A DNA stretch of 64,000 bases from a virus, in the IMG/VR virus record IMGVR_UViG_3300028197_000782, positions 33,101 to 97,100 of that record. One strand, written 5' to 3'. How positions within the stretch are numbered: position 1 is the stretch's first letter; each line of letters opens with the position of its first letter. Below are positions 8,106 to 33,461 of this stretch, one piece after another. The notes beneath the pieces were generated by a model. It saw only the letters and a list, made by a program, of their open reading frames with translations, was not told where the DNA came from and made no database searches. Made by a program: the position numbers and the translations under genes.

Positions 8106-11100
8106 TAGAATCCACCATATCCATATAAATTAAGTATACCCGTACCGCCACTAAGAGAGCCACTAACCGATAATGGTAGTATACCAGAAGATTCAAGATT
8201 CTGTATTCCACTGGCATACAATTGCAATATTCCAGAACTATCTAAAGCCGAAATGCCGTACAATCCTACATTATTATACACATTTCCAGTTTCTGGACCC
8301 CTGCTGAAAAGATTGATAATTCCAGATGTATTGAACGGAGCGCCCTCGTTAAATAGATTTAATCTAGCTCTTTCGCCAGAGCCAAATTCATAAACGCCTC
8401 TAATTTGCTTAATAAATGGCCTGTGAGTAACATATCCTCTTTCTACCTTGTCTTGTCCAGAGGCTTCTATAAAGATTTCACCTTGCTCGTTGGAGAATAC
8501 TAAACCTTCAAACCTATGCGTTGCGTTTGGAACTGTTCCGTTCGTGAAATCAAATTCTATATATTCATCCTTATCTCTATAAACACCAAACACTTTACCC
8601 TTTAGTGATGTGTCTGGATGAGAGAATCCGGGGCGAAGTTTTCTCAGCATCGCATCGTTCGTGTAGACAGCTCCAATATTTCCTGAAGTTGGAACGCTGT
8701 GGTTCTTTGACCCAATAGCTAATGTATAATCACTATCACTTCGTCTAGATCTATACAAGCTGAGTGACGTTCCAAAGTAATTATTTTCACTAGATCCTTG
8801 AGATAAATCTAAATCTTCTAAAGGATTAAGTTTTTGTATCTGAGTCCAAGCTTGCTGCTTAGAACCCCAATCATCAATCTTGTTTTCGTATGTAAATACT
8901 GCACCATTATTGAGTACAGTTAGGCCACTATTTGGATAAGCATCACGAACTGATTGTTTAGCGAAGTCGTGCTTAGTTCTAGTCTCTATTGCAAACTGTT
9001 CGTTAAATGCTTTGTTTACGAATTCGCCTGAGTTGATTTCAAAGAACGTATTGAAGTCGTGACCCGGAGCGGAGATCGCCATTAAGTCTCCATCCAATAC
9101 AATGTCAGCACCAAACATATCTGAAACGAAAGCATTATTCTCGATAAATGAATCTGTATAACTATGAGTTCCAATGATTCCAGACAATGCAGTTGCGTCA
9201 GTATTCATAAAACCAACGCCCAGCTCATCTGGTCTAAATTTACTTGTCGTCTTCCAAGGTATACCAGTAGTAACAGCCGATGATCCCTGTATAGAACCAA
9301 CACCGTCTCCAACATTACCAACTTTCTCAATTACATATACAGCTCCAGCTCCACCGTTATGACCAACTTCTACGCCAGTTAATGAACCGTTATCTAATAT
9401 TCCAGACCAAGGCGTAATTGTTTCATTATTATATGGAGTAAATGGAGATCCAACATACAGTTTATTTTTATGAATAGTTACTTTATATCCAAACAAATCA
9501 CCGGGATAACCAGAATTAAATACATCAAAGTCTAAGTGATCATGACCAGCTGCTCTGAGTAGCGGAGGTATTCTTTCTGACAATCCAGCGTCTACATAAG
9601 TTTGACCATTGTATACATCTTGAATCTTAGAAGTAGACGACCAATACGTTTGATATTGTAGGAATTCATCTACATACCATTTTTGTTCGTACTCTGCCCT
9701 TGTCAGTCCACCATAAGTATACGGGGGAATGCTGAAATAATGACTTGGTGGAAGTCTGGGTGCGTCAGGACGTTTTCTAAACTTGCCAGCGTCTTCGGCT
9801 TCCATCAGTGACAACATGCCGTCGAACGGCTGATAAGGTATCTCTCGACCCGGAGGCGTTTCTATATCTTTTTTACCCTCCGTGTCAGAGTATTTGTCTA
9901 CGCCAATACCAGCACTATCATATCCACCAAACCTTGCATTTAATCCAGAGTTATCTGGCAAAGCGTTCACTAGTCTACTCGGACTTGCTCTTTCTGGAGA
10001 GATAATTTTATAAGCATTTGGATAGAATTTTGTTTGAGAAAATTCATCAGAACCAAAGAAGTCATCTTGATAATACTGATAAGTTCTAGGATAAAGACTA
10101 GCTAAGAAATTAGCTAAATCATCGACGATAAATTCATCTTCATTTAGTATATTCCTGCCCTGTATAATACTAGCGTCACTAATAACAGTAACTCTAGACT
10201 TGTTATAACCTGAGAAAAATCCCCCTTGATCATAAACCTGTTGTGCAACAACTACTGGTCCATCTGCAATAACAGGAGCATCGCCATCAATTCCATAGCC
10301 AGCTGGGTCTGCTTCTGCGCAAACTTCTGAATTGTTTTCAGCACAGTATTTAGAACTATCAGTGCTAATCTGTCTAATCAAATCTTGTTCATATGAGAAA
10401 CCCGGAATGGAAGGAATAGAAACAGTTCGATGTTCAAAAATAGGAACAGATGTATTGTTTGTTTTAGTTTCCAACGGTAATCTGACACCAGAAACTCCAA
10501 GAAGTCTTGTAGTTCTTTTTTGATCTGGATTTTCTTCTAGCGTCCGGTAGAATTTAGTGCCAGTAAAGTACATATCAATCTGACCACCACTTGGAAGCTG
10601 TACGTCAACTTCATAGGTTTTAGGAGTAGAGCTAGCCTCTAAATACTTCCAAGCTGCTTGCTTGATTTGGGTGGAGGCAGATAAATTGTCATCAGAGTAA
10701 TCTAATATACTTGTTGAATTTCCAACCTTGTCTTCTATGCCTCCAATAATCCTTGTGGGTGTTCTGCCAGTTCCTTGACCAGAAAACGTAATTCCCCTTC
10801 TGCCATTTTCTACGTATACTTCAATAGGTTCTATTTCAGTCTCAGTAACAGATTGAACTGTAAAGAATAGTCTAAATAAGTATAAATCATCTTCAACTTC
10901 TCTACCAAGATCGTGAGAAAGAATTGAATTATGATCTGGAACATTAAATGTTGCTTTACTAATACCAGTATGTAATCTAGGCTTGCCCTTTGAAACAATT
11001 TCTATATCTGAAATACTATTACTTTTCCCACCTAGTAAAGAAGAATTATTTCTTTGTATAGGTATGATTTCATGGTTTAAAGTTGTGCCAATTCCAAGTC

Positions 11101-14100
11101 TATTGTATGGTGGCACGTTGGTGATAAAACTTGCTCCACCACTAGGAAATCTTGATCGAGCATTTCCGTAAAGAGTAAATGCAGAGAATAAATCTCTTGT
11201 ACTTGAGTTGGTAACTACATCTGACCTTTGGGCATATCTATTCTTACCATTTAAGAATTTAGGCTTCATGCTGATTCCTAGTTCTTTACAGATATAAGCA
11301 GCAACATTAGCAGCTCGTATCATAAACGGAGTCAGTCCATCGTTTTTGGTTTCTTTATTTGGTTCTTGACCATAAGTTATAATTAACCTCTTATTGCCCA
11401 AATCTAAGAAATTCTTAATATGTTGTATATCTTCGTCTGACGGCATCTTGTCTGTGTTTGCAATCCAAGCAATGTCATACTCTAAATATTCAGCAGTCAA
11501 TTTGTCTACATCTACATTTAAGTCTCTAGAATCTATTCCCATGCTATACATTTGGAATGCTATATCACTCTTAATATATCCATCTTTATACGATTTCCTG
11601 TCGGTAAATCCTCCAACTTGAGCGATTTTAGCATAAAATCCATTTTGGTTCATCTTACTGCCATAAGCTAGAATATTGTAATAAGCTAAAAGATTTCTAT
11701 CGCCATCAGAAGCCAATAAAACATCTTTACGCTCTGTATAAGTGGTAGCAATAAGTACTACCTGAGAATTCTCAACCGCTCCGGGTCTGTATCTCTCTTC
11801 GTTAACCATGTCAAACTTACCAACAGTAATACTTTCTTCAACATCTTTAAATGGAGTTGAAGCCTTAGCCATTAACAAGCCATCGCTAATACCGTTAGCA
11901 GAAGCTGTAGCTAAAGGATCAAAGAATAAACTATCACTGTTTATATCATTAATATTATGATCTACATTAACAAAATTAATTCCACTATAAGATCCTTCGT
12001 TGTCTAAATCAGCCTGCCACAAGAAAGAAATTCCAGAGTAAGGAGTGTTTCCATAGTCAAACGAAATATTAGTAGTTGTGTCATATCCAACCACATAGCG
12101 TTCTATTCTTTCTCTTTCTGGGACTGCTGAAACATTAATAGTTTTCTTAACTGATTCATATGCAGCTAATATAGGAACAGGTTCGTTCTTAGGTCTATCA
12201 TTGGGATTAGTGCTGATTTTTGGAATCTCAGGACGATTACAACCCCAATTGCTAGTATTGTGAGTTCCATAAGCATATCCAATATTGCGATGATATGTAA
12301 TAAACGATGTTTCGCCCTTTGGTGTGACATAAACGCATTGATCTTTATACTCTGCTCGTAAATCTCCCTCATGTTTAATAGGTAAATTACACTTGTCATG
12401 CATATCTCTGTAAAGTAATTTTCTACCAGCCCGACTAGAACTTACACCGTCAATTTGTTCAAGGATAGCAAATGGATCGCTTGATTTTTTCATCCCAAAT
12501 GGAAGACTACAGGAGTACAAATCTACAATATCTTCTCGATAGTGCTTGATGTCACCAACTCCATAGCCTTTAAGTCTACTACCTCTCCTTGCTATGACAG
12601 AGGTAGACTTGGCGGGATTAAACGACGACTGTACATTAAAGTAGGCGTTGGTTGATTCAATAAGAGCTTCTCGACTGTCTCTTGCTGGATGTACCTGAAG
12701 ATTAATATCGAGACGTTGTAGGATAGTGTTGATGATGTTTGTAGAATCAAAGAATATCCCATCGCCTTCATATCGAGGATCATCGGCTACTAATACTAGA
12801 TGTCTATCACCTTTAGATAGCCACTCTTTAATATTATTAATAATTTCATCACTATTAGAATCCACAGCTGGAGTTATGATGAATGCAAGGCCAGCATCTT
12901 CTGGTATTTTTTGATCTTCTGCGAAACTAGTTCTAGAATAATCAATACCCCTAGAAGAAAGCATTTGTTTAATATTTTCAAAATACAAATACTTATCATT
13001 TTCACTGGCTAAATCCTCATGCAAGTTTCCATACTTGTAAAACTCTACGGCTTTGTCTCTGTGAGGATAATAATCTCTACTTTCTATTAGTCTTACAGCT
13101 CCAGCATTAGTATAGTTTTGCCATTGCCAAGGTTGAGTATTCCCGTAAGCAGTATCATACCTAAACCAAGTTATTGTATTGTCGCGCTCTCCAAGACTAT
13201 CAGTTGGGCAACCGATTGCTATCATGCTGCCATCGTCGTTCGTGTCTACGCTATATCCAAGCCGTGGAGTAGGAATATACCTACTGTACAGCTGGCTCCA
13301 AGCTCCACCTCGATCTGGATAGACTTCAGAATAAGAAAGACTTTTGATCTTAGAGTATGGCTTTATGTTATACGTTCTATAGAACATGAACTTAAGACTC
13401 TCAGACATCTCATTAAATATAGAGAGTTTTAGGGCGTTATTTGTTCCAGTAGGAGCTTTTTCATTGTTGTATTTATTGTTAAGCGTGTACCCCTCGCCAA
13501 ACGTAGCATCAATAATTTCTTTGTTAGATTCTGCTGATAAAAATGAAGGTAAATTATTAAAGATCCTAGTTTGTAATCTACTTTCATAGTCAGACTGCCT
13601 TTGGAATACTTGAACAGCGCTTTCTGTGTACGGCGATCCAATAACGATTATATTTCCATCTTTACTGATAGCAACATCATGACCAAACCTGTCAGATACA
13701 TCATCTGAATATGTAACAGGAGATTGTATTTCTTGGCGTAACTCAAAAGAAGATGTGGCATTATCTTTTTCAAACACATAAACAGCGCCACCACTAGGAG
13801 GTGGATTATTAAATTCTGAAGCGCTTACATTAAAAGTTCCTAAGTTAGTAGCTATTAACGTGTGCTTATTGGCAGCTTTAAGTGTAGGAATATCAGTTAA
13901 ATCTCTTAAGCATCTAATTGACTGAGAAACCCAGTTAGATTCTGAGCTAGAAACTGTTACAGAAGCGTAACCTTCAGTAGCGTCACCCGTTCCAGCTCCT
14001 CCAGATCCAAAGTCTTTAACACCATTAGCCTTTGAGTAAGAATAGTAATAATCAATAAATTTATTTAAAGCACCTTTAAATCCATTTGTATAATAACCAA

Positions 14101-17100
14101 CCCTATCAGAACCAAGAGAAAATGAATCATCAACAAAGAATCCCATCAATGGAGGAACTCCGTTGTGCAAAGCAGAAGCGTTAGTTGAAAAAGTATCATG
14201 GAATATATTTTTCATTTCTTGAAGCATGGTGGCTTCAGCGTCTATCCAATCCTGACTAGTAGTACTAAGATTCCAATGCCTTGTAGTTAAGTGCTTAGTA
14301 ACAAAATCAGGCTGTGGAGTATTGAATTCTTCTGAGGATTCAAAAGGTATATCAGATCCAAGGTGTGGTTCTAATATCATAATTTTTATATCAAATTCTA
14401 CAGCTGGATCTGCAAAATATCTGTACAGTATGTCTCTGTCTTTTAGTGCTTTAAGAACATTTTGCCAAGGTGAAACATTGGGTTGTAACTCATTATTAAA
14501 TACCATCAACCCAATAGACACTGGCGTAGTAGTAACAGGAGAGAAAGTTCGTGTCCATTTGGAACCCGGACCACCAGCAACAATAACTTCTTTGTCTCCA
14601 ACCTTTGTTGCATCTACTGAGTGTCCCAGTTCTCGCCCTTCTCCAGAGTTGATCCAATTTCTAATGGTTCCTGTAAATGGTAGAGTTTGACCTGAATCGT
14701 CTGTAAATGTAGCAGTTGTGGTTGTGAAATAATCTCTTCTCCATCCAGTTGGTAACACAATTTCTTGCTCAACTGCCCATTGAGCTTGATCATCTTGCTC
14801 TGACCAATCATATCCAGAAGGAGCAAGGTTTCTTCTGTATACGTAAATCTTACCATGACTTTCTACTGGGCGAGAAGCAAGGTCTGAGTTTAAGGTGTCA
14901 TTTACACCAACAATATTATCTGCATACGGAACTCCCACAGCTAACATGTCTTGCACGATCTTGACGGATGAGCCGAATTTATTGTCAGAAAATCTGTTGC
15001 TTATTTTTTCTAATAACTGTATTCCAGAATAATTAACTTCTGGAGGAATAATACCACTACTCTCTGACTTACCATAATTCCACTCTTGTAGCTCTCTTGG
15101 AACATCAATTATTTCAGAACCAGCGCTTTGACCAGTAATAACCAAATTGTATGGAGCGTTAGGAATAAGATTGGTAAATTTACGAATGCCATAATATTCT
15201 TTATCATATCCAGCTTCTACGTTAGAATAAACTCTAACGGGCCTGATGACTCCACCTTCAGCGCATTCTGGTACATACCAAGTTGTATCATGGGTAACTA
15301 TAGCAGTTTCGGTGCATGAAACGCCAGCGTTGGTGTCGCAGTCTCCGTAACACATAGTATTCACGCCCCTGATCTCGTCATTAGCTGGAATGCTTGCGTA
15401 CTGATTATCATCTACATAAATTTCAAAACCGTAATTTTGACCATTCCAAGTAAATGCTTCTAATTGGCCTTCTTCTTTACCTACGGGTTGTACGTGATAT
15501 GTGTACAAGTTTATGTTGCTTGTAATAGTTTCTAGTATTGGCCTGCCTTGAACTTCAAGTGCTAAACTATCCGATATGCTAATTGGATTTTCATCTGGAC
15601 CAGAAACATAAAAATTAATAGAATTATTTACAGTGATTGGAAAATTAGTTGCGCCATGTCCACCTAATATAAATATACTAAACGAATCAGCATTTGTATT
15701 AAATGATTGATCACTAGCATTTATACCTCTAGTATAAAGATTAACACTGGATAGTGACTGAATAGCATCAGAAAATAATCCTTCTGAGTACAAAGTAAAT
15801 GGATCTCTAAGATTATTTGCTACTGAAAATCCACCTAAATTAGAAAGATTTAATATTCCACTTTCAGCTAAACCTCCACCATTGTGCAGATTCAAATTTG
15901 CATAGCCACCGGACCAGCCGGAAGCATAAATATTCATATCAGATGAATGTTGAGTATAAATATTACCACTAGTATATAAATTAACAGAAAGGTCTGGAAG
16001 GGTATATGTTTCATGGTTTCCAAACATGACGCTGCCAAACCCACCAGCCGCAATAACTTCTTTAACCGCGCCTTCAGCCCATGTCATATTAAGAGAACCA
16101 GCAGAATAAGCATCACCACTAGTATAAACGTTTAAATGTTCGTTAGATTTATCTTCAAATAATATTATATCATCCATCTTGATATCTAATGAATGAATTT
16201 TTATCTCAGAGTGTTCATATGAGCCAGATGGATATACTAGATCATACTGTACAAACATCTCATCAATGTCTCTACCAAAGTAATTCTCTGAAAATTCTTT
16301 CTTAGTGATCCGCTTGTCGAAGAACGCCCAAGGTTCACTGTCAGAATCAGTATATTGTTCTAGTGTGAATCTACTCTTAATCTTGATCCAGCAATCTTCA
16401 GGTGTTACATAATGAACATCTCTACTGACTAAGCCAAAGTTGGTGCTAGCAGAGTATGCACTTTCTTTAGTTGGCGCGTATAAGCTTGCAATAAGTTTTG
16501 CACCAACTTTACCGTCAGGCCACACAATGTTATCGTCGCAGCTGTGTTGAAGAATAGTATTTACTAGTAAAGAGTCTTCAGCAAACAAATAACTTCTAGG
16601 TAAATCTTTTACAATTCTAGGAGATACAGCATAAAATCTATCTTCTCTACCAGAAAGCTGAACTCTAATCATATCATTTTCAATTTGAGTATGATAAGCT
16701 AAACCAGAAGCGTTAACAGTAGGTGGTAGATCTATATTTGTTAAATCTGCATAAGTCTTTCCATGATTGTGGAAGCTATGATAAATATAATCAGTTCCAA
16801 TTCTTTTGGACATAACGTCAAAGTCTGGACCAAACTGACAATACTTAAATGAGCCTAACTTCCAATCATCTGTTTTCTCGTCTACAAAACGGAATAAATT
16901 GTCTGATCCATCCCAGAAATTAATTGAGTTTGATCTAAAGAAATCAAGGATTGTATGTTCTTGGACAGACGCATCGGGGACTTTAGTAGAGTCAATAATA
17001 TTTGCATGTCCGCTAGCATTAATATCAGATATGCCAATCTCACTTATAAAGGCGTTGAATCCTACGCCAGAGCCAGCAGAATAAGAAAATGTTAAATCAC

Positions 17101-20100
17101 TAGTACCACTATGCATAACAAAAGCATTTGACTCAGCACGAAGTATATCAACATCAGATACTATTTCATTCTTAGTATATAGCCTAAGTTTATTATCTCC
17201 CCTTTGATTGTAGGTCAAAACAACACCAAGAGGATATTGATAATTATCATAAGAGAGAGTGTCAGATATCTCAATAATATTAGAAGAATTTTTTTCTTTA
17301 GCGTAGGCTGTGAGATAACCATCTTTATAACCTAGAGCGTATTCTAAGTCACTACCGCTATCCCACTTACTAAAGATAGCTCCAGAATTCCAAAGGTTGT
17401 AATTAGGACTTGTTCCGCTAACAGTAACATCTGGAGAAAATTTAGTATATACAGTGAAGCCTTCAGACGTTGGTGTATCTCCAAAGTTTAAGTACCCATC
17501 TACACCAGAGCATCGAAGCACATTGTCATAAGCGTCAAGTATTTTACCTTCAAGCTCATGGCCCGTAGGACACCAATCAATTGTTTTATAAGATCTAATA
17601 TTAGAGTCAAACAAACTAGAGTTATTAAACCTTAATCCAATATTCCTAGTTAGACTATCACTTATATTTGAATTAAATAATCCAGAAATAGATACATCAC
17701 CAAAGTCGTCCATGAATGCATTATTAACAACTTTATTGAAATCAAAATATCCCAGCAGGAACGGTTGGTTTTTTGTGTTTCTTTCATATGAGAAATCGAA
17801 AGCTTCTGCATCAAACGGAGAGTCATCGACCTGACCAGTACAACCCCTCCAACGACGAGAATAATTTGTCTTTAACGTGTCTTCTATTTGAGTATATCCA
17901 TGAGGGACATTTTCTAGCAAGGACAATCCATGAGACATTGAGTTTGTTATAGAATCAGTATCTTTTTTAGTATCAGGGTATAATCTACCTGTTCGATCAG
18001 CAAATTTCTTGGATAAATATCCTGCTGTAGTCAATGGGAAAGCTCCAGCAGGAGCATACTTAATAATCAAATCGGCTCTTTGTATGGATGCACCGCTTGG
18101 AATTGGGTATATATCTAAGTACAAAGATTCAAAGTATGTACTCATACTATAATCTTTTGATCTGCCAAGTCTTACACTATCATTATATATCTTTAATGGT
18201 ACATCGTATGTCTCAAAATTTATTCCAGTTACGACAGGGTTTCCTATCTTATAATGATCGCCAGCTGCGTGTTCTATAATAGATTCTTGGAAGTACGCAT
18301 CTTTATCAGAAATAGGATGGTTAGAAATACCTAAATCATCAGTAGGTAAAAAGCCTGAGTGACTTGGAATTATGCCACTTCCAACTTCTGCATTTTGTAA
18401 AAACCCGCCTTGCTCAGAGGTGATAGCAAGAACACCATCATCACTGTAACCAACTACATCAATTGGAAAATCATCATGAAGTGTCGAACCTTTCTTAGCA
18501 CTGATACGCAATGTTATTTCTTCTACAATGAAAACAGAGTCGTCAGGCTCAACCATCGCCACTTTAGCGGTTCCAAAATCAGATCCACCGTAACGCTGAC
18601 CTATGAAGAAAGCGCCTCCGGTTTTTTCTTTTACTGATTGAGGTTTTGCATTTTTATATAATAGTTGTAATTTACCAGATTCACTAACTGGTGTAATGCT
18701 ATCTAAGGTTATCCAACCATCTACAAATCTATTAGCAAGTCTATCTTTAAATACTCCCTCCGCATTATCAGAGCTTGTGTAATATACGTTACCATCTGCA
18801 TCAGCAGAACTCTTCCAAACATTAACAATACCAGTAGGATATATATTATTATTATAAGATGATGTCAAAACTCTCGTAGGAGATAAAGCTCTTTCTAGTC
18901 TCTGACCAGTTGGCTGTGGCATCAATACAATATTCAGCTGACCGTCATGAAGTAATCCACTACTCAAGCCTTCATTAACTATTTCAATAGAGGATATTCT
19001 TAAAGCATTCGTTGGGTTTAGCTGATAACCCTGAGTTCTTGTCGATAAAGGCGCTCCATCTAAAGACAAATAATCATTAGGACTACTTGGTACAAACTTC
19101 CTTGTAAGGTCACAATTATCTTCAAAGCCTCCATCAAATTTTTTATCAAACGGTTCGTGAAAACATGTTGCATCTACATCAAACGCAAGAAGATATCCAC
19201 TGTTTTCATTAACAATAGGATAGTCAAATCTATCTAATCCAGTTCCTGCGTAGAACTCTTCAGGTTCTGTTACAAGTGTAAACCAATCTCTTTGTAAGTT
19301 AGGGTGTATTGTATAATCCTGTTCTCCAATAACAGATATATCTTTATACTTAGCAATCAAATCTCCTGAAGGATCTAAGAACTTAATATTTTTAATATCA
19401 TACTTAGGTGGATTATTACCATCATAATTAAATAAAGGAGCAGCGGCTCTAAAAACCAACACACTTTCCATAGGAGTCATGGTAGGATTGGTAACTTCAA
19501 ATTTATATTGAAAACTACCAGCAGTGTTAATAGATGAAGGGGTTATGTAAGAAGAGTTCTTATCAGATAGAAAGTATCCCGTACCACCATTTTGAAGTAC
19601 ATTGCCTACAAAAACCCCCTCATCTATGCTTCTATATATTCCGCTATTACCTAGCTTTTCATCTACTAAACTAATACCATCATGTTCTATATCTTCATCT
19701 TTAATAGGATATAATTTTTGTATAAATCCACTAGCAAAATCCATAAGAGAAAGTTTCTTAGCATGACCTTTCATCTTTTCAAAGAATTTGATTTTCATTG
19801 TACCTTTAGAATCAAACTTGGCAGCGAAGTTTGTAATCGGCACATTCATGGAAGCCCTTAGATTACTTCCAGATTGACATCTTGCAAATATACGATGTAT
19901 AGTTTGAGGAGAGCCAGTATATGTATAAATATGATTGTTACTTGTAGCTGGGTCATATACTGAGTCTGGAATACCATCTAAACCAGACTGTTTATATTCA
20001 ACAGAGTCAATATCAAAAAGTTGTTCAGGAAGAATTCTGGGTGGCTTCTTGGTAAACTCTCGTTGCGCATTGAAAGATACATCGCTATCTCCACGCATAA

Positions 20101-20347
20101 TTTTAGGCAAGGCGCTTGGGACACTGGAAAAAGAAGCAGCACCAAATCTTGGTTCAGAAAAAGTTTCAGATGTTTCCCCTAAGCCTCTACGAAAACTAAC
20201 AATAGTTAATGAAGCGAGAGATTTAAACCTAGTGGTTACTTGAGGTTTTGCCTTAAGCTTAACTTTTTTTACAAGATGACCTCGGACCCTACTGGTTCCT
20301 GTCATCCTGACTTTAAAAGAATCTTGATCCGCACATCTAACTGACAT
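8105..20347 (-). CDS. Giant tail-associated adhesin-like protein (4080 aa) with a LamG-like domain and seven FG-GAP-like repeats
   Basis: LamG-like segment ~17020-17530 (GFTVYTKF...IFSKW...LTYN...LRLY...ISEIGI). FG-GAP-like motifs KFGSSV..LAVGVPY, ELGHSV..VAGGPG, RFGHDV..IGSPY, RLGYSV..IGCP, LFGYKV..VGSPF, MFGADI..ISAPG, YFGTSL..AIGS. Confidence 0.7.
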   Translation of the reverse strand: MSVRCADQDSFKVRMTGTSRVRGHLVKKVKLKAKPQVTTRFKSLASLTIVSFRRGLGETSETFSEPRFGAASFSSVPSALPKIMRGDSDVSFNAQREFTKKPPRILPEQLFDIDSVEYKQSGLDGIPDSVYDPATSNNHIYTYTGSPQTIHRIFARCQSGSNLRASMNVPITNFAAKFDSKGTMKIKFFEKMKGHAKKLSLMDFASGFIQKLYPIKDEDIEHDGISLVDEKLGNSGIYRSIDEGVFVGNVLQNGGTGYFLSDKNSSYITPSSINTAGSFQYKFEVTNPTMTPMESVLVFRAAAPLFNYDGNNPPKYDIKNIKFLDPSGDLIAKYKDISVIGEQDYTIHPNLQRDWFTLVTEPEEFYAGTGLDRFDYPIVNENSGYLLAFDVDATCFHEPFDKKFDGGFEDNCDLTRKFVPSSPNDYLSLDGAPLSTRTQGYQLNPTNALRISSIEIVNEGLSSGLLHDGQLNIVLMPQPTGQRLERALSPTRVLTSSYNNNIYPTGIVNVWKSSADADGNVYYTSSDNAEGVFKDRLANRFVDGWITLDSITPVSESGKLQLLYKNAKPQSVKEKTGGAFFIGQRYGGSDFGTAKVAMVEPDDSVFIVEEITLRISAKKGSTLHDDFPIDVVGYSDDGVLAITSEQGGFLQNAEVGSGIIPSHSGFLPTDDLGISNHPISDKDAYFQESIIEHAAGDHYKIGNPVVTGINFETYDVPLKIYNDSVRLGRSKDYSMSTYFESLYLDIYPIPSGASIQRADLIIKYAPAGAFPLTTAGYLSKKFADRTGRLYPDTKKDTDSITNSMSHGLSLLENVPHGYTQIEDTLKTNYSRRWRGCTGQVDDSPFDAEAFDFSYERNTKNQPFLLGYFDFNKVVNNAFMDDFGDVSISGLFNSNISDSLTRNIGLRFNNSSLFDSNIRSYKTIDWCPTGHELEGKILDAYDNVLRCSGVDGYLNFGDTPTSEGFTVYTKFSPDVTVSGTSPNYNLWNSGAIFSKWDSGSDLEYALGYKDGYLTAYAKEKNSSNIIEISDTLSYDNYQYPLGVVLTYNQRGDNKLRLYTKNEIVSDVDILRAESNAFVMHSGTSDLTFSYSAGSGVGFNAFISEIGISDINASGHANIIDSTKVPDASVQEHTILDFFRSNSINFWDGSDNLFRFVDEKTDDWKLGSFKYCQFGPDFDVMSKRIGTDYIYHSFHNHGKTYADLTNIDLPPTVNASGLAYHTQIENDMIRVQLSGREDRFYAVSPRIVKDLPRSYLFAEDSLLVNTILQHSCDDNIVWPDGKVGAKLIASLYAPTKESAYSASTNFGLVSRDVHYVTPEDCWIKIKSRFTLEQYTDSDSEPWAFFDKRITKKEFSENYFGRDIDEMFVQYDLVYPSGSYEHSEIKIHSLDIKMDDIILFEDKSNEHLNVYTSGDAYSAGSLNMTWAEGAVKEVIAAGGFGSVMFGNHETYTLPDLSVNLYTSGNIYTQHSSDMNIYASGWSGGYANLNLHNGGGLAESGILNLSNLGGFSVANNLRDPFTLYSEGLFSDAIQSLSSVNLYTRGINASDQSFNTNADSFSIFILGGHGATNFPITVNNSINFYVSGPDENPISISDSLALEVQGRPILETITSNINLYTYHVQPVGKEEGQLEAFTWNGQNYGFEIYVDDNQYASIPANDEIRGVNTMCYGDCDTNAGVSCTETAIVTHDTTWYVPECAEGGVIRPVRVYSNVEAGYDKEYYGIRKFTNLIPNAPYNLVITGQSAGSEIIDVPRELQEWNYGKSESSGIIPPEVNYSGIQLLEKISNRFSDNKFGSSVKIVQDMLAVGVPYADNIVGVNDTLNSDLASRPVESHGKIYVYRRNLAPSGYDWSEQDDQAQWAVEQEIVLPTGWRRDYFTTTTATFTDDSGQTLPFTGTIRNWINSGEGRELGHSVDATKVGDKEVIVAGGPGSKWTRTFSPVTTTPVSIGLMVFNNELQPNVSPWQNVLKALKDRDILYRYFADPAVEFDIKIMILEPHLGSDIPFESSEEFNTPQPDFVTKHLTTRHWNLSTTSQDWIDAEATMLQEMKNIFHDTFSTNASALHNGVPPLMGFFVDDSFSLGSDRVGYYTNGFKGALNKFIDYYYSYSKANGVKDFGSGGAGTGDATEGYASVTVSSSESNWVSQSIRCLRDLTDIPTLKAANKHTLIATNLGTFNVSASEFNNPPPSGGAVYVFEKDNATSSFELRQEIQSPVTYSDDVSDRFGHDVAISKDGNIIVIGSPYTESAVQVFQRQSDYESRLQTRIFNNLPSFLSAESNKEIIDATFGEGYTLNNKYNNEKAPTGTNNALKLSIFNEMSESLKFMFYRTYNIKPYSKIKSLSYSEVYPDRGGAWSQLYSRYIPTPRLGYSVDTNDDGSMIAIGCPTDSLGERDNTITWFRYDTAYGNTQPWQWQNYTNAGAVRLIESRDYYPHRDKAVEFYKYGNLHEDLASENDKYLYFENIKQMLSSRGIDYSRTSFAEDQKIPEDAGLAFIITPAVDSNSDEIINNIKEWLSKGDRHLVLVADDPRYEGDGIFFDSTNIINTILQRLDINLQVHPARDSREALIESTNAYFNVQSSFNPAKSTSVIARRGSRLKGYGVGDIKHYREDIVDLYSCSLPFGMKKSSDPFAILEQIDGVSSSRAGRKLLYRDMHDKCNLPIKHEGDLRAEYKDQCVYVTPKGETSFITYHRNIGYAYGTHNTSNWGCNRPEIPKISTNPNDRPKNEPVPILAAYESVKKTINVSAVPERERIERYVVGYDTTTNISFDYGNTPYSGISFLWQADLDNEGSYSGINFVNVDHNINDINSDSLFFDPLATASANGISDGLLMAKASTPFKDVEESITVGKFDMVNEERYRPGAVENSQVVLIATTYTERKDVLLASDGDRNLLAYYNILAYGSKMNQNGFYAKIAQVGGFTDRKSYKDGYIKSDIAFQMYSMGIDSRDLNVDVDKLTAEYLEYDIAWIANTDKMPSDEDIQHIKNFLDLGNKRLIITYGQEPNKETKNDGLTPFMIRAANVAAYICKELGISMKPKFLNGKNRYAQRSDVVTNSSTRDLFSAFTLYGNARSRFPSGGASFITNVPPYNRLGIGTTLNHEIIPIQRNNSSLLGGKSNSISDIEIVSKGKPRLHTGISKATFNVPDHNSILSHDLGREVEDDLYLFRLFFTVQSVTETEIEPIEVYVENGRRGITFSGQGTGRTPTRIIGGIEDKVGNSTSILDYSDDNLSASTQIKQAAWKYLEASSTPKTYEVDVQLPSGGQIDMYFTGTKFYRTLEENPDQKRTTRLLGVSGVRLPLETKTNNTSVPIFEHRTVSIPSIPGFSYEQDLIRQISTDSSKYCAENNSEVCAEADPAGYGIDGDAPVIADGPVVVAQQVYDQGGFFSGYNKSRVTVISDASIIQGRNILNEDEFIVDDLANFLASLYPRTYQYYQDDFFGSDEFSQTKFYPNAYKIISPERASPSRLVNALPDNSGLNARFGGYDSAGIGVDKYSDTEGKKDIETPPGREIPYQPFDGMLSLMEAEDAGKFRKRPDAPRLPPSHYFSIPPYTYGGLTRAEYEQKWYVDEFLQYQTYWSSTSKIQDVYNGQTYVDAGLSERIPPLLRAAGHDHLDFDVFNSGYPGDLFGYKVTIHKNKLYVGSPFTPYNNETITPWSGILDNGSLTGVEVGHNGGAGAVYVIEKVGNVGDGVGSIQGSSAVTTGIPWKTTSKFRPDELGVGFMNTDATALSGIIGTHSYTDSFIENNAFVSDMFGADIVLDGDLMAISAPGHDFNTFFEINSGEFVNKAFNEQFAIETRTKHDFAKQSVRDAYPNSGLTVLNNGAVFTYENKIDDWGSKQQAWTQIQKLNPLEDLDLSQGSSENNYFGTSLSLYRSRRSDSDYTLAIGSKNHSVPTSGNIGAVYTNDAMLRKLRPGFSHPDTSLKGKVFGVYRDKDEYIEFDFTNGTVPNATHRFEGLVFSNEQGEIFIEASGQDKVERGYVTHRPFIKQIRGVYEFGSGERARLNLFNEGAPFNTSGIINLFSRGPETGNVYNNVGLYGISALDSSGILQLYASGIQNLESSGILPLSVSGSLSGGTGILNLYGYGGF

Positions 20348-23300: not shown

Positions 23301-26300
23301 CTTGTGAGCAGCTGATTGAAGTGCAGCCGCTTTTGCTGTTTTAGTTAATACTTCTTTAGTTTTATCAAATGGGATAAAAAAGTCTCCAGAAAAATAACCA
23401 ATAACAGCACCAACAGCTATGCCTAGAGGACCAAAAATAGCCCCAGCAGCAGCACCAACTGCCATGCCCGTAGCAGCAGCTTTTCCTGATTCTCCCTCCG
23501 CTTGCGTTCCAGCTTGTTTTACGGCTTCGTCAACATCACCCTTTTCTATCGCTTTTTCTTTTCTAGCTTTGGCAGCAGAAGCTACAGCGCCACTCCACAT
23601 ATACATAATAGCTATAGCAGCAGTTAAAGCTGCAACAAAAGCTATGACAGGAAGAGCAAGTAATGCCACTGGACCAGCAAGGGCCAAACTTGCAGTTCCT
23701 AATGCCATATTCCCTAGCATAGCAAAAAAGCTTCCACCAGCTTCTGCCACATCAGCTGTAGTAGCAACTGCACTACCTACAGCCTCTCCCAAATCAGTTG
23801 CGGTAGCAGCTGCACTTCCTCCAGCCTCTACTACATCAGCTGTAGTAGCAACTGCACTACCTCCAGCCTCTGCAACATCAGAAGTAGCAGCAGCAGCACT
23901 AGCAACAGCTTGAGCTTGCATCGAACTTGACGCTCCAAATATAGACGGAAGTAACTTTGAAGCAAAACTTCCAGCCACCTGTAAACCAGCAAGTCCTGCT
24001 TTTGCCATACTTTTTACAAAATCAGTTGATAAGAGCATTGCCACCATACTAAGCTGCATAGCCATATCGTTTACGCTATGTAAGAAATAATCCATAGGCC
24101 CAGAAGCTTCATCAATTACCGGAAGAAACATGGAGAAGGCAGCTTGTAGAGCAAAGACACTCATCATCATGCCTTCCATGCTCATTTTTGTTTTACCAGT
24201 TGATTCTTTTAAATTTTTTGATGCTTTAATAGATTCAGCTGCTTCTTTCTTATCTGCTTCAGCAGCTTCCAAACTTGCTTTAATTTCTTTATTAGTAGCA
24301 TCAAGTGCTTTTAGTTTAGCATCATTGTTTTGTAGCGTAGTCGTAGCTGCTGTAGCTTCAGCCTGAGTGATTTGACCAAGAGCTGCTAATTGAGTGACGT
24401 TAGCTTGAGTGAGTTGATTTTGAGTAGAAGCTGTATTGAGAATAGCAGTTACCAAACTGGTCATCGACTGAGTGGCGACCATTGAAATTTCACCTAGAAC
24501 ACTGATCCCAGCTGCACTGATCATTGAACTTTCACCTAGAGCATTGATCCCAGCTGTATTGAATCCTTCTACTCCACCTCCATTTTCAAATCTTTGTACA
24601 ATACTACCAACTGGACCGCCCTTATTAAACTTGGCGATTTTATTCATCTGACCAAGCTTACCATATCCAATATTTTGTGCTGACTTTTTATTAATTACAA
24701 ACTCACCCGGAGTCAACAAGGCAGGAACTGTATCTGGACCTTCTGGGCCAGTACTTCCCATAGCTCGTTTTTTTCTTCTTAATGAATCTTTGGAAGCGGC
24801 TTTGTCTCTATTCTGTGATAGCTTGCTATTTTTATCAAACTTGTTGTGTTCTTCTCCTTTGGCCTCTTTAGCTGCATCTTTAGCTTCAGCTTCAGCTATC
24901 AATTTATTTGCAACAGTAGACCTAAAGCCCTCTACTAATTTGTTAACACCTTTTTTAGCCAAACTTCCCAAAGCATCTTCGTTAAATGTTCTTTTGGCAT
25001 CTGCAATTCTTGTGCCATCCATACCAAATACAGGAGCAGCAGATCCTAAGCCTAGTGGATAATCAAAAGTTGCATTAGCAGCGTCACGCTGTTCATTAAA
25101 TGGTTGGTCTGATAAACCAGTAATAAATGCTTCAAATATATTGCCTTCAACCTGTGCTGGATTAGCTTGTTGATAACCTGTACTAAACTTACTTGGATTA
25201 AATTTAGGAGTACCGCCAAACGATTTAGTAGCAAATTCACTAGCAAATTGTGCTATACTGTTCTTAAGTCCTGCCTGAAAGCCTTCAGCAACCTGCGTGT
25301 TCAAGGAACCAGACTGTACATCAATTTTAAGCGCTCTGCTAAGTTTTCCTATTTCTGCCTTCTCTGAATCTCTAAGGCGAGGTGAGCCTGTTTTGTTACT
25401 TGTGAGGTTACTTAAACCCCTTGCAATTGGTTCCTCTAGTTTTGCAGTATCGCCAGCCTGAAGCGTTGCCATTAAATTTTTCACAACACCTTGAGGCTGT
25501 AGGAATGCACCTCCAATGTCTAAATCAGAGTCGCCAACATTCTTGTCTCCAGCAGCTTTCAGTGTTGCAGAAATGTCTTGCCCATCTATTTGGAATCTTG
25601 CCCCTACTCCTTCATCGCCTAATTTTTCTTGAACAGTCTGTTTTTTTCTTGCTTTTTTAGCCGTTTTACCATAAGTATGTCTACCTCTTGTAACAATGCC
25701 ACCAGCAGCATACTTATTCATAGCCTCCAAATTGCCAGCACCTAGCTTCGCAACACTATCTTTTTTAATGACAAACTCTCCCGGCATCAGCATAGCTGGA
25801 ACAGTATCTCTATTACCAGTTCCGGGGACAGATCCACCTCTGGCAAACTTCATTACTTTGCCACCCTTACTGAATGCGCCCAGCATGGCAGGAACGCCAT
25901 CACTATCACCAGTAACTGGAACTTGACCTCCTCTGGCAAGCTTCGTTGCTTTACTACCCTTATTCGTAGCCTTTAAATTGCCAGCGCCTAACTTCGCAAC
26001 GCTATCTGGACGAACTGTAGCAAATTGCTTATATGAATATTGCAGTGGTACTGCTGAACCTTTCCAGCTAGCAGGGTCTGGGCTTGGGAAATCTTCTTCC
26101 TTAGCGTATGAACCCGTATATAATTGTGCTTGTGGAACTATACTTTTGCTAACCGGCCTACCATCTTTGCTTCTACCCGAATTAAAGTAAGTACCCCAAA
26201 TTTTAGTTAGTGCAGATGCACTTACTCTGCTTCTGTCTGAAACTAAGCTTCCTCCTTGCTTCGTCGCTTGTTGCATAGCAGCGTCATATAAAGCTCTGCC

Positions 26301-27962
26301 TCCTCCACCTGTTGCTTGAGAACTAGTAACTGCAAAAAGTCCACCTCCTATGTCTCTTGCAGAAACCTCGCCGCTACTTGATTGTCCTTTTTTAAATCGG
26401 GCAGTAATTATTCTTCCACCAGTAGTTTCAACACTTAATCCTTTTTGATTAGTCTTCTTCGTTGCTTTACCACCCTTATTCATAGCCTCCAAATTGCTAG
26501 CGCCTAACTTCGCAACGCTATCTTTTTTAATAACAAACTCTCCGGGCATAAGCATGGCAGGAACGGTGTCGCTATTGCCACTACCCGGAACCTGACCTCC
26601 TTTGGCAAATTTCATTACTTTTCCACCCTTACTGAAACCGCCCAGCATACCGCCAACTCCCTTACCCATAGAGCCTAAAAGTTTAATACCGGCGAAAGCA
26701 GTTAGTAAAGGTATGATTGGAGCTAGAGCATCAGCTAGTTTTATCAACGCACTGGCTAGTTTTAAGACAGTATCAGCCATTATTTGGAACGTAGTACTAG
26801 AAGTAACACTTCTAATTAAAGCTAAAAACTCTTCTTTAACTTTAGTAATTTGAATGCCCAAAGCAAGTTGAGCTTTCGCTGCATCAGTAGCTAAACTTCC
26901 AGAACCAGCTTGAGCTACATTTAAAGCAGCCTGAGCTGTAGAAAACTGTTGTAGTAATGGAATGACTTTACCAATTTGTCTAAATCCACCCAACTGTTCA
27001 GCAATTTCAATGAACGTAATATCACCCTGCTCTAGACCTGCTAAGGCAGCACTAAGCTGACGTATAGCTTCAAAGGGTCCAACAAACTTACCTTCTAAGT
27101 CGAGAAGTTCAACTCCAAACTGTTTAAGATATTCAATAGTTTCAGGACGTTGAATACGTGTAAAGATAGTTCTTAAACCAGTAGAAATACTTTCAGCAGA
27201 TTCTCGCGTTGTAGCTCTAACGCTGGTAAATAATGCAATCAATTCATTTAGATCACCACCAGCTGCCTTAAACACACCACCCGTTCTACGAATGACAGCG
27301 ATCAAGTCGCCAGATTCTACAGCGAACTGACCAGCAACCGCATTCAAAGAACCAAGTTGTTCTTCCAGAGCAGCAGCGCCCTGACCAAACTGATTCAAGA
27401 TTGCTACAGCGCCTTCAGCCGTCTGCGTAATATTATCAAACGTAGGAGCTAATTCAGTTTTAGCTAAAGTAGACAACGCTGTTTGAGTGTCTCTGGCAGA
27501 TAAACCCGTCTGAGCTAAGATTCTAGATACACTTAATAACGAAGTAGAAGATACACCTAAAGTAGTAGATAATCGAGTAATAGTATTGGTAAGACCTTGA
27601 AGAGACTCCATGCTCTTACCAGTAACCTGAGAAACTTTAACTAATTCTCTTTCAAAAGCAATAGCTTCTCTAATAGCATTACCCAGCGTGTTAGTAAATA
27701 AACTAACCGCTCTGGTAGCAATAGCCAAGCCAGTAAATCTATTAATATTAGCTTTTAAAGATCCATTTAATTTATTAAACGAACCACTAGCTTGATTAGC
27801 AGATTTAGATACATTATTTAGTTGCTTAGTTGCAGTGCCAGCCTGTTGTACATTTACATTTACACTTACGCCCTTTAATTGTGATTGTATTTGTGATACA
27901 ACCTGACGAACGTTATTTGGTGCTTGTAATTGTAACTCAGCTGTTAGTACGAATTTTGACAT
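20358..27962 (-). CDS. Tail tape measure protein (2534 aa) with internal repeated modules and cargo domains
   Basis: N-terminal TMP core (AFERELVKVSQVTG...LAQTGLS...), Ala-rich helical body and hydrophobic segments. Lies after the tail tube and chaperone genes. Confidence 0.9.
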   Translation of the reverse strand: MSKFVLTAELQLQAPNNVRQVVSQIQSQLKGVSVNVNVQQAGTATKQLNNVSKSANQASGSFNKLNGSLKANINRFTGLAIATRAVSLFTNTLGNAIREAIAFERELVKVSQVTGKSMESLQGLTNTITRLSTTLGVSSTSLLSVSRILAQTGLSARDTQTALSTLAKTELAPTFDNITQTAEGAVAILNQFGQGAAALEEQLGSLNAVAGQFAVESGDLIAVIRRTGGVFKAAGGDLNELIALFTSVRATTRESAESISTGLRTIFTRIQRPETIEYLKQFGVELLDLEGKFVGPFEAIRQLSAALAGLEQGDITFIEIAEQLGGFRQIGKVIPLLQQFSTAQAALNVAQAGSGSLATDAAKAQLALGIQITKVKEEFLALIRSVTSSTTFQIMADTVLKLASALIKLADALAPIIPLLTAFAGIKLLGSMGKGVGGMLGGFSKGGKVMKFAKGGQVPGSGNSDTVPAMLMPGEFVIKKDSVAKLGASNLEAMNKGGKATKKTNQKGLSVETTGGRIITARFKKGQSSSGEVSARDIGGGLFAVTSSQATGGGGRALYDAAMQQATKQGGSLVSDRSRVSASALTKIWGTYFNSGRSKDGRPVSKSIVPQAQLYTGSYAKEEDFPSPDPASWKGSAVPLQYSYKQFATVRPDSVAKLGAGNLKATNKGSKATKLARGGQVPVTGDSDGVPAMLGAFSKGGKVMKFARGGSVPGTGNRDTVPAMLMPGEFVIKKDSVAKLGAGNLEAMNKYAAGGIVTRGRHTYGKTAKKARKKQTVQEKLGDEGVGARFQIDGQDISATLKAAGDKNVGDSDLDIGGAFLQPQGVVKNLMATLQAGDTAKLEEPIARGLSNLTSNKTGSPRLRDSEKAEIGKLSRALKIDVQSGSLNTQVAEGFQAGLKNSIAQFASEFATKSFGGTPKFNPSKFSTGYQQANPAQVEGNIFEAFITGLSDQPFNEQRDAANATFDYPLGLGSAAPVFGMDGTRIADAKRTFNEDALGSLAKKGVNKLVEGFRSTVANKLIAEAEAKDAAKEAKGEEHNKFDKNSKLSQNRDKAASKDSLRRKKRAMGSTGPEGPDTVPALLTPGEFVINKKSAQNIGYGKLGQMNKIAKFNKGGPVGSIVQRFENGGGVEGFNTAGINALGESSMISAAGISVLGEISMVATQSMTSLVTAILNTASTQNQLTQANVTQLAALGQITQAEATAATTTLQNNDAKLKALDATNKEIKASLEAAEADKKEAAESIKASKNLKESTGKTKMSMEGMMMSVFALQAAFSMFLPVIDEASGPMDYFLHSVNDMAMQLSMVAMLLSTDFVKSMAKAGLAGLQVAGSFASKLLPSIFGASSSMQAQAVASAAAATSDVAEAGGSAVATTADVVEAGGSAAATATDLGEAVGSAVATTADVAEAGGSFFAMLGNMALGTASLALAGPVALLALPVIAFVAALTAAIAIMYMWSGAVASAAKARKEKAIEKGDVDEAVKQAGTQAEGESGKAAATGMAVGAAAGAIFGPLGIAVGAVIGYFSGDFFIPFDKTKEVLTKTAKAAALQSAAHKALAESSKEATAAMKDFQAGNISAAEALAATSAGTAAVLASRQANIEANTALMKNTRTAASAVGDFMVGLTGFSFGFGTTKQNEDKAQAQIDENNKEQDKLSQEAISQSQPAINALGKQVAATGGDFNTFMAQLQAANPALAELADQDELQKAFDNITKEAERTKAAFDAMNLGFQGINAAASAANLGMSNLVDGFDGSISRMDQTINTLKAGVTNAAQGMEAGVFEEAVNHASSQIERLGGDATKFRENIKAINTAQKFFVSASKSAKDSLVADFKRGAGGPGNAGDRRGAFADAVVGQMDGVGEDVKERILDALKGADIKNEDLDEIMAGNFAVLDKVLADLGDTTLDQVLPALEALAEASDKLAQVQRKRLDLEDELASAVKKQIDVTLEAAEIMAEFGGPQVTPQQQSQAIVDKLNVTGADVGLSQMTSGSADEIRNRNDEIAKKQEEQRITRNEAAAGDKEAQATINSPQFQADEERLQKAAEENYQLTKALIDVKRDEIKVINAKNAAEKKAAEQLLGNDIEGFLDTMAGKGAAAAAAIGDPTLANQFGMSAFGTANKQLEEMQQAGVTSFMGQDIGQVRQNAVGMGLSSAGLAPGVAQGMAEAATGTSPEAEAAKAAARDLASTLPQSTGNLKTATSNMLEAAKIQEREANKQVQKAVDEVEANTPTTTTTPPPTEKFDPATGKPIVNPFTDPVGAAMEQQGLDPTVSSPAAGATPPPDQQAESKPSQMQSEFERIQKQVEGDVQKVFVVNLNEMSSLASSGPSDLTRLREQAASLATSPEQVDSINSMGLDELKKIITAAYATPDTGGVSVAATDQKGVLDSLISGITAPLRAVSDVGDSVTSAITAPFNALTAGLTGAISPLTGAIGPLNTSIQNLSSALGGGLDLSGLDGFGENLAGFNESFKAQVDRLEAMNINITFGAPVDVNVNINGGEALKSITAQAKQEIMAEVSTKLKNLFVGNEPVVQREGTVG
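23731..23896 (-). repeat. ~4 x 42-bp (14-aa) tandem repeat within the TMP (AVATTADVxEAGGS)
   Basis: Exact 30-bp duplication acatcagctgtagtagcaactgcactacct at 23749-23778 and 23833-23862, 84 bp apart. Confidence 0.85.
25713..26648 (-). repeat. Direct repeats within the TMP: two ~174-bp module copies (25713-25886, 26475-26648) and a 67-bp repeat pair (25941-26007, 26457-26523)
   Basis: Both long copies encode MLGxFSKGGKVMKFAxGGxVPGxGNxDTVPAMLMPGEFVIKKDSVAKLGAxNLEAMNK. The 67-bp pair aligns at 62/67 identity by hand and is 516 bp (172 codons) apart. Confidence 0.9.
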
Positions 27963-32979: not shown

Positions 32980-33461
32980 GCTCTTTTCCAAAAACAAGCG
33001 GCATATCTATCTTGTTTTAGTCCCATTGGGATAGGGTCTCCATGTCTAACAAATCTGTATTCTCTGTATCCTTTTATGTCTTTATGTACTATTAATGCAG
33101 CAGCTTTCATTAACGCCGGAACATCTGTAAACATAGATATTGTTTGTATAGATCCATCAGGTATCGCTATATCTCCACCAACCTTAACGAATTGTTTGAA
33201 ATCCCAGTAAACTTTTAATTTTATATCAGTAAGTACTTCGACCTCTTTTATGGTTTTAGTTCCTCTGTTTCTGTCTCCACCATTTCTTCTATGATCATTA
33301 ATAGTATTCACACTAGGTATATTATCATCTGGATCATATGGTGTGATAATTTCTTTTTTCTCTATAGAAACTAATTGACAAGTAACCCCAAACATATTAA
33401 ATGTGGAATCTATAACGTCATTATATGTATCAAATACACTGTCTGGAATATTTATGGGCAT
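32976..33461 (-). CDS. Putative head closure protein (161 aa)
   Basis: Small beta protein in the neck region; synteny only. Confidence 0.45.
   Translation of the reverse strand: MPINIPDSVFDTYNDVIDSTFNMFGVTCQLVSIEKKEIITPYDPDDNIPSVNTINDHRRNGGDRNRGTKTIKEVEVLTDIKLKVYWDFKQFVKVGGDIAIPDGSIQTISMFTDVPALMKAAALIVHKDIKGYREYRFVRHGDPIPMGLKQDRYAACFWKRA

Follow-up and report, generated by a model that had tools for sequence, protein, structure and literature searches.

The DNA analyzed here (the window) is a stretch of 64,000 nucleotides from a 97.1-kb IMG/VR virus record (IMGVR_UViG_3300028197_000782, positions 33,101 to 97,100), assembled from a metagenome and with a CheckV completeness of ca. 61%. It contains, on the minus strand, an open reading frame (ORF) of 2534 amino acids, P0001, that by its sequence is the TP901-type tape measure protein (TMP) of an uncultured marine tailed phage. 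Inserted in this protein is a domain with a predicted GNAT-like fold, bracketed by copies of a repeated linker and missing from the two nearest TMPs. P0001 has what is expected of this type of TMP: the PF10145 (PhageMin_Tail) core (aa 126-312, Pfam E value of 7.8e-24), a very long protein and hydrophobic stretches around aa 1270-1530, as read from the translation. It also matches several PHROG tape measure families, and its first 500 residues have 2420 relatives at E<=1e-20, many of them marine (e.g., from TARA) and several carrying the name TP901-family tape measure protein. After the conserved N-terminal core, the first ca. 1100 residues alternate linker modules of ca. 60 aa with folded "cargo" segments, and the domain studied here is one of these segments (Table 1).

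Table 1. Features of the tape measure gene, with positions counted from the first letter of the window
Feature	Position	Strand	Basis
Tape measure protein ORF P0001, 2534 aa	20358..27962	-	ORF list, translation, PF10145, PHROG tape measure families
PF10145 (PhageMin_Tail) core of P0001, aa 126-312	27027..27587	-	Pfam
Linker module 1, aa 444-501, complete: GG-rich head, DTVPAMLMPGEFV core, helical tail	26460..26633	-	Module HMM, E 1.3e-24
GNAT-fold cargo domain (predicted), aa 504-651, 148 aa	26010..26453	-	Translation, family alignment, AF2, fold searches
Degenerate module remnants, aa 652-696: tail without PGEFV core, then head ending VPAML without tail	25875..26009	-	Module HMM, self-comparison
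Linker module 3, aa 698-760, complete	25683..25871	-	Protein identical to the single module of empty-site P0107
Linker module 4, aa 1066-1120, complete	24603..24767	-	Module HMM
Direct repeat, left copy; codes for the module tail after the GNAT-fold domain	25941..26007	.	Repeat family D3, self-comparison
Direct repeat, right copy; codes for the tail of module 1	26457..26523	.	Repeat family D3, self-comparison
254-aa (762-nt) block, aa 443-696, absent as a single clean gap from P0107	25875..26636	-	Protein alignment, D1 pair
223-aa (669-nt) block, aa 451-673, absent as a single clean gap from P0106	25944..26612	-	Protein alignment, D2 pair

Linker modules and the repeats that encode them

The first-pass annotation of this DNA had singled out two direct repeats of 67 nt on either side of the insert. 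A repeat search recovered both (62/67 identical nucleotides, 93%, with a spacing of 516 nt), together with a third and weaker copy (25695-25761, 70%). When the whole gene was compared with itself, 62/67 was reached at offsets 516 and 762 only, the next-best offsets (59 at offset 84 and 56 at offset 42) corresponding to unrelated tandem repeats. This pair (D3) is the innermost of three nested in-frame pairs, with spacings of 516, 669 and 762 nt. The other two also enclose the insert: D2 (25882-25962 and 26551-26631, 79%, 669 nt) and D1 (25713-25903 and 26475-26665, 82%, 762 nt). All of them are full or partial copies of a single protein linker module of ca. 60 aa, which opens with a GG-rich head, continues with the core DTVPAMLxPGEFV and closes with a short helix whose last residues are ...L..MN. 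The insert had been described as removable in frame, and the spacings are indeed multiples of three, but this is automatic because all the copies code for the same peptide motif in the same frame, and is no independent sign of design.

We built a hidden Markov model (HMM) of the module from 429 distinct copies in TMP relatives. The module punctuates a very large family of marine-phage TMPs, and tblastn against phage genomes gave no similarity to any Escherichia phage. P0001 has four occurrences, three of them complete and one (aa 668-694, E value of 1.8e-4) reduced to a head; a core-less module tail (aa 653-666) follows directly after the insert. Two more places of the same gene have repeats associated with length changes. 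A 42-nt tandem duplication (24477-24560, 86%, D5) codes for two 14-aa units, and P0107, one of the two nearest TMPs, has a gap of 14 aa there; this is another in-frame repeat-mediated length change in the TMP gene. Imperfect 84-nt repeats at ca. 23750-23900 (minus strand, aa ca. 1355-1410; 59/67 at offset 84) code for AEAGGSAVATTADV-like units before a hydrophobic segment, and P0107 lacks 42 aa at this position.

Presence, absence and exchange of the domain

Six of the 121 TMPs closest by N-terminus, that of the window included, carry the domain, as does 1 of 31 IMG/VR relatives. The two nearest, P0107 and P0106, with 422 and 419 identical residues out of 440 at the N-terminus (95-96%), lack it. 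They provide the empty-site alleles that the first-pass annotation had set as a test of its proposal. We mapped the breakpoints on the protein sequences; in each case the missing block is a single clean gap with both ends inside the repeated modules, and through the downstream complete module the two proteins are identical to P0001. The 516-nt pair had been put forward as the deletion joint, but these natural alleles are joined at the 669-nt and 762-nt pairs instead. A metagenome scan with P0107 returned only more distant TMPs.

Alternative cargo, which had also been set as a test, was found in related TMPs. P0138 and P0156, with N-termini 68% identical, carry an ADP-ribosyltransferase exoenzyme domain (PF03496, aa 966-1177, E value of ca. 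4e-6) that ends exactly where a linker module starts (aa 1178). P0001 itself has a second conserved segment between modules (24903-25442, minus strand, aa ca. 841-1020; ...EGNIFEAF...FDYPLGLG...ADAKRTF), in which the order E..D..(D/E)xK is that of restriction-endonuclease-fold nucleases. It gave no PDB sequence match and no Atlas lead, and a similar nuclease-like block is often found directly before the GNAT-fold domain in relatives.

The nearest relatives of the domain do not come from the nearest TMPs. Those that are 60-68% identical (P0256-P0259, P0003 and P0004) occupy other positions, in TMPs that at the N-terminus share only 40-56% identity with P0001, and the domain is therefore a shuffled module. 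Conversely, P0023 is 76% identical to P0001 at the N-terminus, and the domain that it carries at the same site, with only 36% identity, falls in another clade. A maximum likelihood tree of the domain unites P0001 with P0003 and P0004 (100/100), apart from the clade of its backbone relatives (98/96), whereas the backbone tree places it with P0106 and P0107 (0.999), a conflict that shows module exchange. No recombinase was found inside the block, and the repeats are coding copies of the module rather than the attachment sites or short target-site duplications of an integron- or transposon-type cassette. The arrangement of the sequence fits homologous recombination. The domain is thus a real exchangeable protein module bracketed by linker copies, and the gain or loss events of the block, in either direction, took place at these modules. 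Taken together, the bracketing, the clean in-frame absence and the conflicting phylogeny indicate that the domain moves between TMPs, and is lost from them, by homologous recombination between linker modules.

The record being a metagenome-assembled contig, and repeats of 67-191 nt at 82-93% identity being able to mislead assemblers, we considered that strain variants might have been joined artificially through the repeated modules. Nevertheless, the frame is open throughout the 2534 aa, and the insert, itself a unique sequence, adjoins module remnants that P0106, from another assembly, has as well. The layout of domain plus linker also agrees with that of the relatives, and a chimera appears highly improbable.

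The direction of the change is less clear. The first-pass annotation had read the high identity of the repeats as recent acquisition, but this is not separable from an older gain followed by repeat-mediated loss in the relatives. It is quite possible that the common ancestor of P0001 and the two nearest TMPs already had the block, and that the relatives lost it by unequal recombination between modules. Each empty allele is one recombination step away (head 1 with head 3 gives P0107, and head 1 with head 2 gives P0106), and P0106 keeps the hybrid head (KGGKV plus TKLARGG) and the odd VPAML-GAFSKGG junction that it has in common with the window. The insert has the GC content (0.423) and the GC at third codon positions (GC3, 0.209) of the gene, so that its composition does not point to a foreign origin. 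Elsewhere among 5.8 billion clusters, in the length range that was searched, no copy exceeded 68% identity. On the other hand, the next TMP relatives (P0108, P0110 and P0113) are also without the domain, so that the small clade still needs a gain on its stem. The module tails on either side of the domain also speak against an old block: they have a single synonymous codon difference among 18 shared residues, plus five replacements, against 19 synonymous differences among the 54 residues shared by modules 1 and 3, which makes the inner pair a fairly recent duplicate or conversion tract. In donor-type proteins the domain is nested in a module, with FA.GGKV before it and FA.GG...D.VPAMLTPGEFV after it. 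In the window the core of the module after the domain has been deleted (it reads FATVRP-DSVAKLG), and the downstream copy of the inner pair, judging from its sequence, is decaying.

Sequence family and predicted fold of the insert

The peptide quoted in the first-pass annotation does exist; it is encoded by the minus strand and corresponds to aa 552-593 of P0001. The complete insert had no match in Pfam at E<=1 or in PHROG at E<=0.1, and a PDB profile search with its family alignment gave nothing at E<=10. Nothing was found either by tblastn of the insert, or of the fragment of another member (P0069) in which the domain is joined to an ADP-ribosyltransferase, against 50,697 phage genomes, nor by a back-translated pattern scan of IMG/VR. 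A phmmer search against 1.84 billion representative proteins recovered 103 relatives at E<=1e-3. In some 60 of these the matching segment lies within a long protein (1000 aa or more, with a maximum of 7122 aa), and the large carriers scanned with Pfam were TMPs; among the others, small proteins of roughly 130-260 aa are numerous. The alignment has invariant G54, G56, D61, R78, A85 and W90, and the consensus S.A..G[WF]GP.LYD.AME.AT..G.GL.SDR..VS..A..VW.YY. By these sequence comparisons the insert belongs to a conserved phage-only family absent from domain libraries, and its own subfamily is well conserved over ca. 140 aa, which points to a maintained fold. P0069 is fused to the ADP-ribosyltransferase PF03496 (E value of 4.3e-8), and one other member to a cupin.

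A single peptide pattern located 73 loci in IMG/VR where the family is encoded by solo genes. These are common in phage contigs, often as arrays of up to five paralogs within 6-7 kb and near primase, resolvase and terminase genes. Two such arrays, L044:1741-7388 and L052:218-6999, have five paralogs in 6-7 kb of large phage contigs, and the recurrent neighbors are a DNA primase, a RuvC-like resolvase, an ATPase/kinase and the large terminase. A 284-kb phage has a canonical PF00583 GNAT ORF (L116:1384-2004, minus strand) that has in common with the solo family only the N-terminal helix motif R.LIRELLAE. Its C-terminal part resembles, by eye, that of P0099, which has the family domain at the N-terminus and in which both kinds of GNAT-fold domain may have been fused.

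The insert was modeled by AlphaFold2 (AF2) with the family alignment as input, giving a predicted local distance difference test score (pLDDT) of 80.8 and a predicted template modeling score (pTM) of 0.78. A solo homolog (P0080) gave 89.8 and 0.85, respectively. We compared both models with 48,161 PDB chains by VIA structure searches, judging the top 50 matches of each. Nearly all those of the insert were GNAT-superfamily folds (Z scores of 5.5-6.8), as were those of the solo protein (5.8-7.7), and they included the minimal GNATs YjdJ, At1g77540 and AcrVA5 and the toxins AtaT and TacT3. Foldseek with the solo model placed the KKT23 GNAT domain first (E value of 1.2e-3, probability of 1.00), and BFVD returned uncharacterized phage proteins together with phage proteins annotated as NAT_SF. 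The order of elements in the insert model (strand 43-52, helix 56-69, strand 73-75, helix 83-96, strand 104-109 and strand 143-147) reproduces the mixed beta4-alpha3-beta5-alpha4-beta6 core of GNATs, on predicted structures. Motif A of GNATs (Q/R-x-x-G-x-G/A) lies in the loop between beta4 and alpha3, where it binds the pyrophosphate of coenzyme A (CoA). In the insert, the invariant G-x-G (G54 and G56) falls in the predicted loop between the strand and helix equivalent to these two elements, and the S..A...W pattern is found at the expected place of motif B. Given the uniform match lists and the two independent models on which the case rests, prediction supports a discrete folded domain with a GNAT-like fold.

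Several results weigh against membership in the GNAT superfamily as an enzyme. All Z scores are below 8, which the search tool grades as middling. Neither Pfam with the insert, nor the PDB profile search and hhalign with family alignments, recognized a GNAT, and among 38 family members only one had a Pfam GNAT match, a weak one (PF14542, E value of 0.027). Alignment of the solo family by hhalign with the single canonical GNAT from five large phage genomes covered only the N-terminal helix, with a probability of 1.5%. The Q/R position of motif A is not conserved in the family, and the window reads GGGGR where the family has G[WF]GP, i.e., with R in place of the Pro that follows G-x-G. In addition, one position occupied by Glu in at least 90% of the family members is Q in this copy, and E, K and Q all occur at it within the subfamily. 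PF00583 had no match anywhere in the six reading frames of the 97-kb record. The GNAT domain claimed in the first-pass annotation is therefore upheld as a fold, by Foldseek and VIA on the AF2 models, but not as membership supported by any sequence profile, and because of this we refer to it as a GNAT-fold domain and not as a demonstrated GNAT enzyme.

These same features, i.e., the lack of recognition by GNAT profiles, the variable residue at the near-invariant Glu and the replaced Pro, would be expected if the fold had no enzymatic activity and served as a binding, scaffolding or pseudo-enzyme module of the TMP, docking for example a host molecule, a chaperone or a virion protein. The matches do include noncatalytic proteins of the same fold, such as ornithine decarboxylase antizyme (Z score of 6.5), and the insert model lacks the alpha1-alpha2 arm found at the N-terminus of classical GNATs. 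We nevertheless regard this explanation as unlikely. The G-x-G loop and the S..A...W pattern are located at GNAT motifs A and B, the strict conservation of the polar residues D61, D77-R78 and S82 suggests an active or ligand site, and P0069 shows the fusion with an ADP-ribosyltransferase that one typically finds in effector enzymes.

Genomic setting, proposed role and known systems

The ORFs neighboring the TMP gene are all on the same strand. The ten upstream have almost no PHROG matches, so that this phage appears poorly charted, and no flanking tail gene could be identified among them by this search. Directly downstream, an ORF of 4080 aa (8105-20347, minus strand), presumably a giant distal tail or fiber protein, has FG-GAP repeats (PF14312, E value of 2.2e-10) and no other recognized domain.

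We consider it reasonably probable that the GNAT-fold domain is swapped between TMPs at the linker modules, carried in the virion, expelled and able to acylate host targets. The functional steps we infer from published precedents, namely enzymes in TMPs and polyvalent proteins, which suggest a tail-carried acyltransferase. The domain would travel in the virion as part of the TMP and would be expelled together with it at infection. Once in the cytoplasm, where acyl-CoA is available, it might acylate a host protein or another amine, and this putative action on a host target early in infection could help its first stages or counter defense, along the lines of the injected acetyltransferase proposed in the first-pass annotation.

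TMPs that contain enzyme domains are already known, as are injected phage proteins with a GNAT domain. We found no description in the literature of this GNAT-fold family without a library model, of its placement between the linker modules of marine TMPs or of presence/absence alleles there. If the domain is active and delivered, an abundant group of marine phages (>2400 public TMP relatives) would inject ready-made modifying enzymes by way of the tail ruler, and simple recombination at a conserved linker would reshuffle the enzyme set. The RNA polymerase-TMP fusion of P23-45, which is the only experimental precedent, would be extended to a general and evolvable cargo system, and a new GNAT-fold family would be defined. 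Natural insertion points for engineering cargo into phage tails would also be suggested, and the presence/absence alleles are a natural experiment on the contribution of the domain to infection. A broader picture, possible but doubtful, is that giant marine TMPs are effector-delivery platforms and the phage-tail counterpart of polymorphic toxin systems. The module would then be the joint at which GNAT-fold, ADP-ribosyltransferase and nuclease-like domains are swapped within populations, and possibly a site of processing or release, with the GNAT-fold family as a new class of acyltransferases modifying the host or its defenses.

Among the structural matches, AcrVA5 (6iuf), YjdJ (5i0c) and At1g77540 (1xmt) align with the two models over 83-89 residues (Z scores of 6.1-6.6, root mean square deviations of ca. 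2.8-3.2 Å) and, like the insert, consist of a small GNAT core that lacks the long N-terminal arm. AcrVA5 inactivates a defense protein by acetylation. It is a mobile-element enzyme that acts as a free protein, whereas the insert is part of a virion-type protein, and there is no detectable sequence relationship between them.

Enzyme-type domains embedded in a TMP are also found in phage T5, where pb2 contains a muralytic metallopeptidase domain that a cut after R1127 separates from the rest during maturation (Linares et al. 2023, PMC10038345), but there the enzyme is C-terminal and acts on the cell wall. The TMP-related reconfigurable effectors of the Sle1 type, from actinobacterial contractile injection systems (Nagakubo et al. 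2026, PMC13277306), are similar in having a TMP-like modular carrier with structurally diverse and exchangeable functional domains. They differ in being cargo of contractile injection systems, with the functional domain at the C-terminus and no linker-module repeats described.

The polyvalent proteins of phages and conjugative elements are multidomain proteins thought to be delivered with the DNA. Their GNAT domain often adjoins an ADP-ribosyltransferase, solo versions exist, and one example comes from an uncultured Mediterranean phage (Iyer et al. 2017, PMC5512222). The insert family resembles them in its fusion to an ADP-ribosyltransferase in P0069 and in the occurrence of this enzyme in related TMPs. 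However, the GNATs of polyvalent proteins are RimI-like and recognizable by sequence, unlike this family without a Pfam match, and the carrier here is the TMP itself. Neither a processing metallopeptidase (MPTase) nor a MuF domain was found in P0001, for which Pfam at E<=0.001 gave PF10145 only, and a single GNAT-fold domain is supported in it, the ADP-ribosyltransferase being found in relatives and not in P0001.

The experimental precedent for a TMP that carries a working enzyme into infection is gp96 of the Thermus phage P23-45, a TMP of 5002 aa whose N-terminal part is the virion RNA polymerase (Chaban et al. 2024, PMC10770324). Its activity has been demonstrated, in contrast to the predicted fold described here, which moreover is that of a GNAT instead of an RNA polymerase, and neither repeated linker modules nor presence/absence polymorphism such as those of P0001 have been reported for gp96 (PMC10770324). 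In both cases, an enzyme-type domain is found in the N-terminal part of a giant TMP, and gp96 is present in virions as the full-length TMP.

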